A DNA stretch of 64,000 nt from Acidimicrobiaceae bacterium (GTDB lineage Bacteria > Actinomycetota > Acidimicrobiia > Acidimicrobiales > Aldehydirespiratoraceae): NCBI GenBank assembly GCA_009844405.1, contig VYBO01000043.1, positions 4,927 to 68,926 of the forward strand, in the 5' to 3' direction. Shown here in pieces: positions 12,004 through 51,628 of the stretch (within the stretch, counting starts at the first letter, position 1; each line of letters starts with the position of its first letter). The notes under the pieces are model-generated. The model had not been told where the DNA came from. It did no database searches and saw only the letters and a program-made list of their open reading frames with translations. The position numbers were made by a program, and so were the translations under genes.

Positions 12004-13037
12004 CTAGTCATCTGCGTCGTGCTTCATCACGTAGTAGGCAGACCGCTTCACTCCGTGCATCTCGAGCCTGCCTTCGTCTCGCAGGCGGCGCAGCAGGCGA
12101 CTAGCCCTCTCGGAGTCAATCCGACACAACTCGGTGGCCTCCCGTCGAGTGATCGATCCATTCCGGTCTACGAAGGTGAGAACCATCTGTTCCTGTTGGA
12201 TGTCATCGAAGCCACGGGCACGCACGTACTGGGACGGATCACCGAGACGCTCATATAGAGAGGCGGCTAGGTGGTAGGTCCTCCCCTTGCCGTCACCTCG
12301 GGCCTCAAGCAGCGAACGGTCGACCAGGCTATTCAGTGAGGCCCGTGCGTCGTGTTGGTCGACTTGGAACAGCTCGGCAGCACGAGCGGACGTAATGCGA
12401 AGCTCAAGACGGATCTCGTGCAAGGTCAGGAGGTCCTGGAGAGAGAACTCTTGACCGCCACGTCGCGCTTCCACGATGAAGCTGGCCAGTTCCCGGTCAG
12501 CCGGTCCTGACCTGACCCTCGCAATCACCGTTCCTGCGGTGCTTTGGCTGTAGTCAGGCGCAGGTCTACCAAGTGCCAGCTGACTGGCAAAGGCTCGATT
12601 GATGCCCCTGCCGGTGCGCTCCACTAGTCCCGCCCGCTTGAAAGCGTCAGCCAATGCCGGATTGCGCGCGCGAGGTGGCGTGATGAGCAGGTTGCGAGTG
12701 GTGATGCCCTCAGGCAACCCACCAGGATTGGACACGACGAGGGCGTCACGCGTGACCTCTACGATCGTTGGTCCCGGGAGTGTGAAGTCACGGCTGGCTC
12801 GGTCTTGTTGACGATCAGCGATTGCAGTCGATTCGGATGTGTCTCGCTGCCATGGCGCGGTTCGGCGCCGACCACGTTGCCTTCATCGTCGACGCCAACT
12901 AGAAGAACCCCACCGCTGCCGTTGGAGAGGCAAGCTACAGCTTCTACGAGGTCGGAATCGTTGATGGATCCGCCTTTGAACTCCGCGGTGAGCGTTTCTC
13001 CCCGAATCAGGAGGTCTCGCAAGTGGTCCGAATCCAT
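12004..13037 (-). pseudogene. Remnant of AlbA_2 / HATPase_c_4 / wHTH putative DNA-binding ATPase (RecG-like annotation family), internal deletion plus frameshift
   Basis: ORF 12759..13037 encodes an AlbA_2-like N-terminus (GETLTAEFKG...GGVLLVGVDDEGNVVG). ORF 12004..12735, in a different frame, starts at the very end of a HATPase_c_4-like domain (VSNPGGLPEGIT...RNPALADAFKRAGLVERTGRGI) followed by a wHTH. About 150-200 aa expected between the two pieces are absent. The region has locally lower GC. Confidence 0.65.
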
Positions 13038-13179
13038 ACTCCTGCTTTAATATGGTCTTTTACGTTTACCTACATCTTTGCGTATTCGCTCAAATCTATA
13101 CGTGTTTGGGTATGACAAGTTCGCTGGCGGTCATGCGCTGGTACACCATGCCTTCGGCGAATCGAGCAACGCGGGCGGG

Positions 13180-13288
13180 CCGCCTAGATCGTTGAGCTAG
13201 GCCGCGCGGTTCATCTCCGACCTCGCCGACAGCGGTGACCCGAGTCGGCACCCGCCTAGATCGTTGAGCTAGGCCGCGCGGTTCATCT
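13180..13288. repeat. Perfect 37-bp direct duplication (13180-13216, 13252-13288) separated by a 35-bp unrelated filler; 72-bp unit
   Basis: ccgcctagatcgttgagctaggccgcgcggttcatct occurs twice, read directly from the sequence. The second copy touches the stop codon of the 13287..13754 gene. Confidence 0.95.
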
Positions 13289-17024: not shown

Positions 17025-17880
17025 CTAGACGCGGTTGAGTGCCCGCCAGACCCGCTCGGGAGTGAAAGGGATCTCGAACAGGCGAACGCCAGTGGCATTG
17101 ACGATCGCCGATCGAACTGCGGGGGCGATGCTGTCCACGCCGATCTCCGCCACCGCCTTCGCTCCATAGGGTCCGCTGTCCTCCATGGTCTGAACCAGGA
17201 TCACTTCGATCTCGGGCATGTCGTCAGCCCGGTAGATGCGGTACGGCCCGAACGCGGGGTTGATGCAGCGGCCATTGCCGTCGTAGACCATCTCCTCGCA
17301 GATGGCGTATCCGAGCGCTTGCATCATGGCGCCCTCACGCTGACCCGAGGCGGGTCGAGGGGGATGACCGCCTCGGGGCCGGCCTCCCCCCTTGCATCAT
17401 GGCGCCCTCACGCTGACCCGAGGCGGTGATGGGATTGATGGCAACGCCGCAGTCGATGGCCATCACCAGCTTCTTGGCGGTGACCTGCCCGGTCTCCACA
17501 TCGACCTCGATCTCGGCGAACTGTGCCGCCCAGGGCGGCGGAGACTCCGGCGACACGTAGGAGGCCTGGCCCATGATCTGGTGCTGCTCGTCCTGGTGAA
17601 GCGAGTTGAGGGCGACCTCCTCCAGCGACACCGACTCCCCGGACGGCGCCCAGGCACGCCGGTCGCGCAACTCGATGGTGCAGGGCACTTCGACGCCGAG
17701 CATCTTCGCGGCCCGCTCCTTGATCTGCCACCAAACTGCTTCGGCCGCCTTCTTGGTGGCGGTGCCCGAGATGTACGTCGTGCTCGAGGCGTAGGCGCCG
17801 GTATCGAAGGGCGTCACGTCGGTGTCGGACGAGTAGATCAAAATGTCCTCATCAGGGAACTGGTGAACATGCGCCAGAAA
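17025..17880 (-). pseudogene. Xanthine dehydrogenase/aldehyde oxidase family molybdopterin-binding subunit, C-terminal fragment only, frameshifted by a 73-bp insertion
   Basis: ORFs 17335..17841 and 17025..17327 together encode ...DTDVTPFDTGAYASS...AIDCGVAINPITASGQREGAMMQ|ALGYAICEEMVYD...YGAKAVAEIG. This is the last ~280 aa of a CoxL/XdhB-like protein. The N-terminal ~450 aa are absent. Confidence 0.75.
17318..17426. repeat. Perfect 36-bp direct duplication (17318-17353, 17391-17426) separated by a 37-bp filler; 73-bp unit
   Basis: cttgcatcatggcgccctcacgctgacccgaggcgg occurs twice. The filler is gtcgagggggatgaccgcctcggggccggcctccccc. Removing one copy plus the filler restores the xdh reading frame. 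Confidence 0.95.
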
Positions 17881-17892
17881 GGGAGGAGCCGC

Positions 17893-18249
17893 GTGGGCAC
17901 ATTCAACCGGCCGATCCGGCTCGACAGCATGGACGGTAAGCGGTCCTTGCGACTCGACGCGTTGGTGGACACCGGCAGCTTCTACACGATCGTGCCCGCC
18001 AGCATGCTGACGAGACTGGAGGTCGCTCGGACCGACGAAGCCTGGCTCGAACTAGCCGACGGGCGGCAGGTCCCCTACGACATGGGAGAGGCTCGAGCCA
18101 CGGTGGACGGGCGCAGCACCGCTACCTGGGTGGTCTTCGGCGAGGATGGCGTTCGTCCCTTGCTCGGGGCGTACACGCTCGAGGGACTCCGCCTGTCGGT
18201 CGATCCAGTCGAAGAGACTCTCGTGCCCATACCCTACGTACGGGCGTAA
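17893..18249 (+). CDS. Retropepsin-like (clan AA) aspartyl protease family protein
   Basis: 118 aa with LVDTGSFYTIVP (DTGS active-site motif). GTG at 17893 is preceded by GGGAGGA at 17881-17887. It lies in frame inside track ORF 17392..18249. Confidence 0.7.
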   Translation: MGTFNRPIRLDSMDGKRSLRLDALVDTGSFYTIVPASMLTRLEVARTDEAWLELADGRQVPYDMGEARATVDGRSTATWVVFGEDGVRPLLGAYTLEGLRLSVDPVEETLVPIPYVRA

Positions 18250-18273: not shown

Positions 18274-19923
18274 GTGCCGGTGGGCATCGTCCGCGACGCC
18301 CACACCATGACCCCGCAAGGCCACTCCCCGACCGGATCCCGAGCTGCGGTGTCGGCTGGCCATGTAGAAGCCACTCGGGCCGCAGCAGTTCTGCTTCGCG
18401 CGGGCGGATCGGCGGTCGACGCGGCCATCGGGGCCGATGCGGTCATGGGGGTGGTGGAGCCTACCGGCGCCGGCGTCGCTGGAGATCTGATGGCTGTCTT
18501 GGCCACTCGCGAGGGAGTCTCAGTGCTCAACGGCAGCGGCCGCTCGGGGCGGGGCACGGACGCGGAGTCGGTGCCCGACAACGGCCACGGCTTCGTGCCG
18601 TCCGCCGGAGGATGGGCGGTGACCGTGCCGGGGGCGGTGACCGCATGGGAGGACCTGCACTGGCCCGTCTGCTGGCGCTGCCAGTTCGGGGACCCCCTGC
18701 CGGGGGCGGTGACCGCATGGGAGGACCTGCACGGCCGGTTCGGCCGGTTGCCATGGCCGTCGCTGTTCGAGCCGGCCATCGAGGCCGCCACCGAGGGCGC
18801 CGAGGTCGGCGCGACCGGGAGCCGGCTCTGGGAGGGTTCCCGAGGCCGGCTGGACGCCGCAGGCGAGGCGCTCTACTTCCCGAACGGCGCAGCCCCCGTG
18901 GCGGGCGACGTGTGGCGCAATCCACCCCTGGCCGAGGTGCTGACGCAGGTCGCAGCCGACGGTCCCGATGCCCTGTACCGCGGCCCGCTGGCCCGGGCCG
19001 TATGCGAGGCCGCCACCGCGGCGGGCGGGCGCATGCACATCGACGACCTGGCCGAGCACCGCAGCGAATGGGTCGACCCGCTGCGAGCGGGCCTGGGGGA
19101 GCACGAGCTCATCACGGCGCCGCCTCCGTGCCAGGGCGCGGTCACGGCTCTCGCTGCCGAATGGGTGCACGACCGGGGCCTGCTCGGCGCCACCCGGGAC
19201 GATGCCGGAGCCGAGGCCGCGGCATCCATGGTCGAGGCGCTCGACCGCGCCTTCGCGTTGGCCCTGGACTGCCTGGCCGACCCAGCCGTAGCCGAAGTGC
19301 CTGGTTACAACGAGATGAGGGCCCGGATGGCTGGCGCGCCGCGACGCGGACCGATGCCGCTGGGGCCGGGAACGGTGTTCACGGTGGTGTTCACGGCCGA
19401 GCAGGCAGTGGTGCTGACCTCCAGCGTGTGCGACCGGTTCGGGTCGGGAGTGACCGTGCCCGAGGGCGGCTTCGTGCTGCAGAGCAGGGGACGGGGCTTC
19501 TCCACCGATCTGAGCCACCCGAACGCGGTGGCACCCAACAAACGCCCCTACCACACGATCGTTCCCACGCTGGTGCTCGAGAACGGCCAACCCATGCTGG
19601 GCATGGGAGTAGTAGGCGGGATCATGCAGCCCCAGGGCCAACTGCAGATCCTGCACCGGGTACTCGGCGGCGCGGACCTGACCGCCGCCGTCGAAGCCGG
19701 CCGGTTCCGCCTGATCGGCGAAGGGCAGGTCACCACGGAAGCCAGCCTGGAGCCCGAATGGCGAGCCGCCATCGGCCGAGCCGGCTATGACCTCGTCGAC
19801 ACAGCCGACGTGATCGGCGGCTTCGGCGGCGCCCAAGCCGTCCTGAGTGCAGGCGACACCCTGACCGCGGCCAGCGATCCCCGCCGCGACGGCGCCTCAG
19901 CCCTTATCGGGATGACTGACTGA
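18274..19923 (+). CDS. ggt: Gamma-glutamyltransferase family protein carrying a 24-aa in-frame insertion
   Basis: GGT-family features are present, including the conserved T in PYHTIVPT (autoprocessing site region) and GGIMQPQGQLQ. The insertion WPVCWRCQFGDPLPGAVTAWEDLH is encoded by 18661-18732. Confidence 0.85.
   Translation: MPVGIVRDAHTMTPQGHSPTGSRAAVSAGHVEATRAAAVLLRAGGSAVDAAIGADAVMGVVEPTGAGVAGDLMAVLATREGVSVLNGSGRSGRGTDAESVPDNGHGFVPSAGGWAVTVPGAVTAWEDLHWPVCWRCQFGDPLPGAVTAWEDLHGRFGRLPWPSLFEPAIEAATEGAEVGATGSRLWEGSRGRLDAAGEALYFPNGAAPVAGDVWRNPPLAEVLTQVAADGPDALYRGPLARAVCEAATAAGGRMHIDDLAEHRSEWVDPLRAGLGEHELITAPPPCQGAVTALAAEWVHDRGLLGATRDDAGAEAAASMVEALDRAFALALDCLADPAVAEVPGYNEMRARMAGAPRRGPMPLGPGTVFTVVFTAEQAVVLTSSVCDRFGSGVTVPEGGFVLQSRGRGFSTDLSHPNAVAPNKRPYHTIVPTLVLENGQPMLGMGVVGGIMQPQGQLQILHRVLGGADLTAAVEAGRFRLIGEGQVTTEASLEPEWRAAIGRAGYDLVDTADVIGGFGGAQAVLSAGDTLTAASDPRRDGASALIGMTD
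18626..18732. repeat. Perfect 35-bp direct duplication (18626-18660, 18698-18732) separated by a 37-bp filler; 72-bp unit
   Basis: tgccgggggcggtgaccgcatgggaggacctgcac occurs twice. The filler is tggcccgtctgctggcgctgccagttcggggaccccc. Confidence 0.95.
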
Positions 19924-24376: not shown

Positions 24377-24520
24377 AGAGGCCGAGCGGGCGAGCGACAC
24401 TCCATGAGGAAATCGAGAGGCCTTCAGCGAGGCCCCGGGGCCGAGCGGCCCGTGAGCGAAGCGAACAAGAGCGGGAAGCACGGCCCGAGCGGCCCGTGAG
24501 CGCAGCGAACAAGAGCGGAG
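24377..24520 (+). repeat. MIRU/REP-like dispersed element, long form plus an extra tandem core (copy 2)
   Basis: agaggccgagcggg...gcgaggccccggggccgagcggcccgtgagcgaagcgaacaagagcggga is followed by a second core, ggcccgagcggcccgtgagcgcagcgaacaagagcgga. Confidence 0.9.
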
Positions 24521-24528
24521 AACACCAG

Positions 24529-51506: not shown

Positions 51507-51628
51507 GGATCCGCCCGCCTACCCGCTCGGCCCCGGCTCCCGCTCATGTTCGCTGGCGCTCACGGGCCGCTCGGGCCACGGCCTCGCCCGCACGAACTGG
51601 ATCCGCCCGCCTACCCGCTCGGCCTCTG
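51507..51628 (-). repeat. MIRU/REP-like dispersed element, long form with duplicated 26-bp flank (copy 4)
   Basis: ggatccgcccgcctacccgctcggcc occurs at 51507-51532 and 51599-51624, flanking the core tcccgctcatgttcgctggcgctcacgggccgctcgggccacggcctcgc. Confidence 0.9.

Follow-up and report, generated by a model that had tools for sequence, protein, structure and literature searches.

A 73-bp duplication-and-filler unit in an Acidimicrobiaceae genome, a probable scar of off-target type I-G CRISPR spacer integration

The 73-bp unit, its host gene fragment and its alleles

The window, by which we refer to the whole stretch of 64,000 nucleotides under analysis, carries on its minus strand a molybdoenzyme large-subunit gene of which only a C-terminal fragment of ~270 aa is present. 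Antisense to this gene lies a unit of 73 nt (36 + 37), in which the 36-nt segment CTTGCATCATGGCGCCCTCACGCTGACCCGAGGCGG at 17318-17353 recurs at 17391-17426 with 100% identity and both copies enclose the 37-nt filler GTCGAGGGGGATGACCGCCTCGGGGCCGGCCTCCCCC. An earlier note on this DNA had described an exact 36-nt duplication around a 37-nt filler, and this description was confirmed. The features of the locus are listed below; the terms neo-repeat and ectopic spacer anticipate the interpretation that we propose further down.

17025-17327, minus strand: downstream piece of the molybdoenzyme gene fragment, an ORF matching MoCoBD_2 profile positions 246-283, out of frame with the upstream piece
17313-17317, plus strand: leader-like anchor GAGCG, abutting the duplicated segment upstream and the same as the final 5 nt of the CRISPR leader
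17318-17353, plus strand: first neo-repeat copy, a 36-nt segment of the host gene, putatively duplicated by staggered integration and present as one copy in seven empty sister alleles
17335-17841, minus strand: upstream piece of the molybdoenzyme (XdhB/CoxL-type) gene fragment, which is truncated at its 5' end, an ORF matching MoCoBD_2 profile positions 95-249
17354-17390, plus strand: candidate ectopic spacer, 37 nt, unique in its own genome, with GEAGPEAVIPLD encoded by its reverse complement
17391-17426, plus strand: second neo-repeat copy, with 100% identity to the first

The upstream minus-strand ORF runs into the filler at 17354-17390 and reaches its stop at 17335. Since the two ORFs cover positions 95-249 and 246-283 of the same Pfam profile, the two pieces of the gene abut across the 73-bp insert. 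A scripted deletion of one copy together with the filler restored ...ITASGQREGAMMQALGYAICEEMVYD... on the minus strand and with it the reading frame, and four homologues from the same genus (~76% identity) aligned to the locus with one clean 73-nt gap. The unit is an insertion, as the note had proposed. The further claim that this insertion is disruptive needs qualifying. The frame of the xanthine-dehydrogenase-type fragment is shifted, but the gene had already been reduced to its C-terminal part, and another contig, C58, contains an uninterrupted paralogous match.

Within window positions 17025-18249, the molybdoenzyme fragment ends at the start of a divergent 118-aa retropepsin-like gene (17893-18249), for which we found identities of 67-79% in related Acidimicrobiia MAGs and of 38-49% in some Chloroflexota MAGs. 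We used this neighbouring gene to locate sister loci; it was found on 21 contigs of other assemblies, ten of which were fetched with their flanks. All ten sister assemblies were >98% identical to the window overall, and most were >99% identical. Three of them contained the identical 73-bp unit, namely a metagenome scaffold from sample SAMN12347672, a contig from SAMN12347683 and the MAG GCA_009836165.1. The other seven showed the exact empty site in two haplotypes; here the 36-nt segment occurs once, the filler is absent and GAGCG is intact. Because the copies are free of mismatches and the insertion is polymorphic among strains that are nearly identical otherwise, the insertion is recent, and the earlier note was right on this point.

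Scars of the same size across the genome

We scanned the whole genome (3.35 Mb in 150 contigs) for direct repeats of at least 28 nt that enclose a filler of at least 15 nt. Exact or near-exact duplications numbered 4, 8, 46, 16, 9 and 7 at spacings of 70, 71, 72, 73, 74 and 75 nt, respectively, compared to approximately one event at each of all other spacings between 40 and 110 nt. Curation left 74 isolated events, 50 of which had perfectly identical copies. Among the 74 events the modes were 36-37 nt for the duplication, 35-36 nt for the filler and 72 nt for the unit, and each event duplicated a different host sequence. The unit at 17318 belongs to this class of ~75 scars, and two further members lie in the same window:

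13180-13288, no strand assigned: sister event with a 37-nt duplication and a 35-nt filler (72 nt), just past a gene end
18626-18732, minus strand: sister event with a 35/36-nt duplication and a 36/37-nt filler (72 nt), within a gamma-glutamyltransferase gene

The event at 18626-18732 adds 24 aa in frame to the gamma-glutamyltransferase, and in the minus-strand view its junction reads GGC-C|GTGC. It was found in all ten sister assemblies, four of which carried one T/C SNP in the filler, and the in-frame insertion is apparently tolerated. The event at 13180 was present in the same three sister contigs as the one at 17318 and was absent in six others covering the locus. Given its occurrence in all ten assemblies the 18626 event is older than the other two, and the presence patterns of the three place them as nested in time.

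Selection for reading frame was sought across the scars by way of unit lengths that are multiples of three, and no evidence for it was found, since such lengths were equally common among the units at coding-like sites (55%) and at other sites (59%). The preference for 72 nt is intrinsic to the unit (36 + 36). By a crude GC3-minus-GC2 measure, strongly coding-like sites accounted for 27% of events versus 72% of random sites. This deficit could reflect either the loss of harmful insertions through selection or a preference of the process for certain sites.

Other repeats and gaps were also encountered in this genome. A dispersed REP/MITE-like element with the core ...GGCCCGAGCGGCCCGTGAGCGAAGCGAACAAGAGCGG is present in the window (24438-24525 and 51533-51598) and elsewhere in the genome (C27:5437 and C30:41803). 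One 20-mer of its core region occurs ~48 times in the genome, and the element often forms a tandem of 43-44 nt. Its sequence includes GAGCG-G, and two or more ectopic spacers are situated inside its copies. A second family is palindromic (GGAATTGGCAGC...GCTGCCAATTC, at C30:3436, C33:8957, C116:12763 and C140:19135) and is also found in a Cas1-free relative (L193:11365). Its tandem period of 71-72 nt falls into the same spacing bins as the CRISPR-like scars, to which it is unrelated, so that it must be filtered from any census of scars. Runs of 10 or 100 N flanked by duplicated 55-mers (e.g. C2:53078, C3:6465 and C27:7288) are scaffolding scars of the assembler and not biology.

The type I-G CRISPR-Cas system and the origin of the fillers

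The genome encodes one complete type I-G CRISPR-Cas system, and its single Cas1 gene is located on contig C17. The operon on this contig comprises genes for Csb1/Cas7g, Csb2, Cas3g, a Cas3 extension, a Cas4g/Cas1g fusion (750 bits versus an NCBIfam cut-off of 560) and Cas2. It is followed by a 171-nt leader that ends in ...CACGCGAGCG and is succeeded by GTTTGG, with the first repeat at the contig end, and the genome therefore possesses a Cas4g/Cas1g and Cas2 adaptation module that adjoins a leader and a first repeat. The canonical repeat GTTTGGCCGGGCACGTGCCCGGCCCTCCATTGAAGG has 36 nt and was found in an array at the end of contig C139, in which spacers measure 33-38 nt and units 71-74 nt. The 36-nt duplication at 17318 has the length of this repeat, and the 37-nt filler lies within the range of these spacers; likewise, the modal scar unit of 72 nt falls inside the 71-74 nt of the canonical units. 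Both the cas and the array contig are part of a binned metagenome genome, and they are tied to the remainder of it by the binning, by ectopic events on both contigs and by close Cas4/1 homologues within the genus.

An ectopic unit of 37 + 34 nt is also present in the 5' region of the cas operon itself (C17:250-357, locus L002), where it is intergenic and lies 43 nt upstream of the csb1 start codon. The idea that this insert breaks a cas8 gene, which might explain tolerance, was rejected because the insert is intergenic and the upstream ORF is unrelated.

Among 39 genomes of the genus, 15 encoded a Cas4g/Cas1g above the cut-off. Of two I-G-positive relatives, one (G005) showed two to three units of 71-73 nt with 36-nt duplications in a 400-kb sample, and the other (G006) showed zero to one scars in a 420-kb sample; two relatives without any Cas1 match (G018 and G027) had no scars in 780 kb. 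These samples are small, and the association between scars and Cas1 is a supporting trend, not proof. With ~25 scars per Mb the present genome is the extreme among the genomes that we compared.

No full-length copy of the filler at 17354-17390 was found elsewhere in its own genome. A core covering 23 of its 37 nt is identical to part of the tail tape-measure gene of the viral contig IMGVR_UViG_3300005077_000175 in the IMG/VR database, and the reverse complement of the filler encodes the conserved phage tail tape-measure motif GEAGPEAVIPLD in the frame of the tape-measure gene. A search with degenerate back-translations of this 12-aa peptide matched >120 viral contigs, and in four out of four viral contigs sampled the ORF bearing the motif encoded a tape-measure protein. 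An exact protospacer of the whole filler was found neither among GenBank phages nor in IMG/VR. By its viral identity and its conserved motif the filler is foreign DNA from a phage tape-measure gene, in line with the foreign origin weighed in the earlier note.

Near-full-length matches elsewhere in the genome were absent for 72 of the 74 fillers. The exceptions were a copy of a host SDR gene (35/35 nt) and a match to a TrpB-like gene (33/36). The former is the spacer at C92:6577, whose 35 nt exactly reproduce a stretch of this genome's short-chain dehydrogenase gene (C59:22990-23024), so that it is self-derived. The 5 nt after the C59 protospacer (AGTAG) are also the first 5 nt of the duplicated target, be it by chance or through microhomology. 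A clear TTN PAM was not found at these two sole near-full-length protospacers, the exact one in the SDR gene and the 33/36 one in the TrpB-like gene, and the boundaries of the duplications are ambiguous. Two other ectopic spacers overlap by 19 nt, and the shared 19-mer is present in 27 viral contigs. Both of them encode (I/V)AKNRHG, which we take to be a motif of DnaB-type helicases. A blastn search of all fillers and canonical spacers, concatenated, against GenBank phages gave no match, and an exact search of IMG/VR with cores from the 13217 and 18661 fillers was likewise negative.

Target sites and off-target spacer integration

Among the 50 clean events, 29 had AGC next to the duplication on one side versus ~3.9 expected, the expectation being ~2 per position as derived from 20,000 random genomic sites. 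Counting either side, 18 events had AGC ending one base short of the duplication, and in 11 it ended right at the edge. All 11 edge events had duplications of at least 37 nt, as would be expected if a chance match had lengthened them by one base. When the 27 uniquely oriented events were anchored on AGC, the duplicated core measured 36 nt in every one. The aligned consensus GAGC-N-G-Y-Y is to be compared with GAGC-G-GTTT at the canonical leader/repeat junction, and the 17318 site reads GAGCG|CTTGC on the plus strand, in which GAGCG represents the last five bases of the leader. The AGC motif is a preference and not a rule, as 21 of the 50 clean events were without it, many of these with GGC or TGC in the same place. 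No resemblance to the CRISPR repeat was found in the remaining duplicated sequence, which suggests that the second cut is set by a 36-bp ruler and not by the sequence of the repeat.

We consider it very probable that the type I-G adaptation proteins of this genome, a fused Cas4/Cas1 and Cas2, integrated a spacer off target (ectopically) and that the 73-bp unit is the scar of this event. The adaptation complex would have carried a 37-nt prespacer taken from the tape-measure gene of a phage and would have docked at the chromosomal site GAGCG|C.., a mimic of the junction GAGCG|GTTT between leader and first repeat. By analogy with characterised Cas1-Cas2 integrases, two strand-transfer attacks, presumably catalyzed by Cas1-Cas2, would then have taken place 36 bp apart on opposite strands, as they would on a real 36-bp repeat, and gap repair would have duplicated the 36-bp host segment, so that the spacer has one copy at either end. 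The resulting neo-repeat is host coding sequence without a hairpin, as its folding energy of -7.2 kcal/mol (z = +0.7) is no better than that of shuffled sequences; the canonical repeat has an 8-bp GC hairpin stem and folds with -19.1 kcal/mol. As crRNA processing requires such a hairpin, it is unlikely at this locus, and the 17318 unit probably provides no immunity.

A different integrase or mobile element, such as a MITE, a casposase-like or a so far undescribed enzyme making target duplications of ~36 bp, might be suspected in a genome rich in small dispersed REP/MITE-like repeats. We regard this as very improbable, since the fillers are all different, with no repeated element sequence and no terminal inverted repeats, and each of them occurs once in the genome apart from the one that copies a host gene. 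Moreover, filler lengths equal spacer lengths, and the Cas4/1 of the I-G operon is the sole Cas1-family gene in the genome. To our knowledge, known transposases and casposases generate target duplications of at most 15 bp.

The earlier note had raised a fold-back template switch, a replication error in which the filler is copied from nearby inverted sequence during the slip that duplicates the 36 nt; we rate it as slightly less probable still. The filler does contain CCGCCTCGGG, an inverted counterpart of the duplication's end, and a 13/14 inverted match runs past the duplication. This inverted match, noted as 10 nt and computed as 11 nt, is real but at chance level, and nearby inverted sequence accounts for no more than these 10-11 of the 37 filler nt. 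Over the 74 events, the stretches that fillers share with their own flanks did not exceed in length those shared with unrelated flanks. An inverted own-flank match of at least 10 nt was seen in one of 74 events versus ~6 expected by shuffled pairing, and the model is thus not supported. It also leaves the CRISPR-sized unit and the leader-like flanking motif unexplained, and the conserved phage tape-measure motif encoded by the filler argues against it.

An artefact of short-read metagenome assembly or scaffolding, as might be feared for a binned assembly of 150 contigs with N-gaps flanked by duplicated 55-mers, is practically ruled out, since independent assemblies reproduce both alleles (the identical insert in deposited MAGs and in assemblies of two or more different samples, the exact empty site from other samples), since a graph of 55-mers should resolve a duplication of 36 nt unambiguously, and since an artefact would not reproduce the unit length of the host CRISPR array or the leader-like motif.

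The off-target integration that we favour for the 17318 unit is known as a mechanism already, and it is the natural scale that is very high here. As summarised in 10.1101/148544 and PMC7054753, off-target integration by Cas1-Cas2 generated 'neo-CRISPR' loci in E. coli (Nivala, Shipman & Church, Nat Microbiol 2018). According to these summaries, that case concerned a type I-E system with a 28-bp repeat and over-produced Cas1-Cas2, natural examples being circumstantial and from two species, and the frequency of off-target integration in nature is called unclear in 10.1101/148544. Judged by these accounts, both cases share a spacer-sized insert at a non-CRISPR site, a target duplicated by one repeat length, a resemblance of the target to the leader/repeat junction, and the repeated targeting of sites that leads to mini-arrays, here on contig C139. 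In contrast to the E. coli case as described there, the present one concerns a natural uncultured bacterium in which the Cas4/1 fusion is of type I-G and the ruler measures 36 bp, with ~74 scars in a 3.35-Mb consensus that are polymorphic in wild strains and with one in-frame protein insertion in 10/10 sister assemblies. Almendros et al. 2019 (PMC6547450) described adaptation by the type I-G (formerly I-U) Cas4/1 fusion in Geobacter sulfurreducens, with selection for a TTN PAM and with the CRISPR array as the place of integration. The adaptation module is of the same subtype here, with Cas4g/Cas1g above the NCBIfam cut-off and Cas2 adjacent, but the targets are chromosomal and lie outside arrays, unlike the array integration of that study. 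The term 'ectopic spacer acquisition' has been used for Streptococcus type II-A, where a spacer is inserted at a non-leader repeat inside the array (e.g. PMC7999890). There as here the integrase misplaces a spacer, whereas the targets in the present genome are unrelated chromosomal sequences and not array repeats. Otherwise, 'ectopic spacer' denoted misplacement within arrays in the papers searched.

The 17318 event stands out by the scale of the class to which it belongs and because it is still polymorphic. We lean towards the view that off-target CRISPR adaptation is a major and ongoing mutational process in this Acidimicrobiia lineage, with scars that number ~25 per Mb and are still segregating among strains of >99% identity. 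If so, the type I-G integrase would need little beyond a GAGC-N anchor and a sequence-independent 36-bp ruler, and the scars would amount to an in vivo specificity map for type I-G Cas4/1-Cas2, with GAGC-N on the leader side followed by the ruler irrespective of repeat sequence. The outcomes would include broken genes, 24-aa in-frame additions to conserved enzymes and mini-arrays seeded beside the real array. The host cost of CRISPR adaptation would be visible as frameshifts and in-frame insertions, and the scars would document both this genomic cost and array birth in a natural and datable form. As far as the summaries cited above describe it, previous evidence came from laboratory over-production, with natural evidence being circumstantial, and the present genome provides a case from the wild with dozens of events. 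The scars might further serve as strain markers that can be ordered in time, and they explain several genes annotated as "frameshifted" or oddly extended in these MAGs. Some of them are possibly early stages of new CRISPR arrays in the genome.

Contig C139 holds a local concentration of such units. Five neo-loci with nine ectopic spacers are located at C139:10931-13270 (locus L003), on the trailer side of the canonical array and within ~3 kb of it, and two of the five (12260-12440 and 13020-13270) are mini-arrays with three to four identical non-canonical 'repeats'. Collapsing these mini-arrays in search of the underlying genes yielded no clear coding frame. The density near the array is roughly 100x the genome average, and this clustering suggests either local re-targeting or relaxed selection beside the array.
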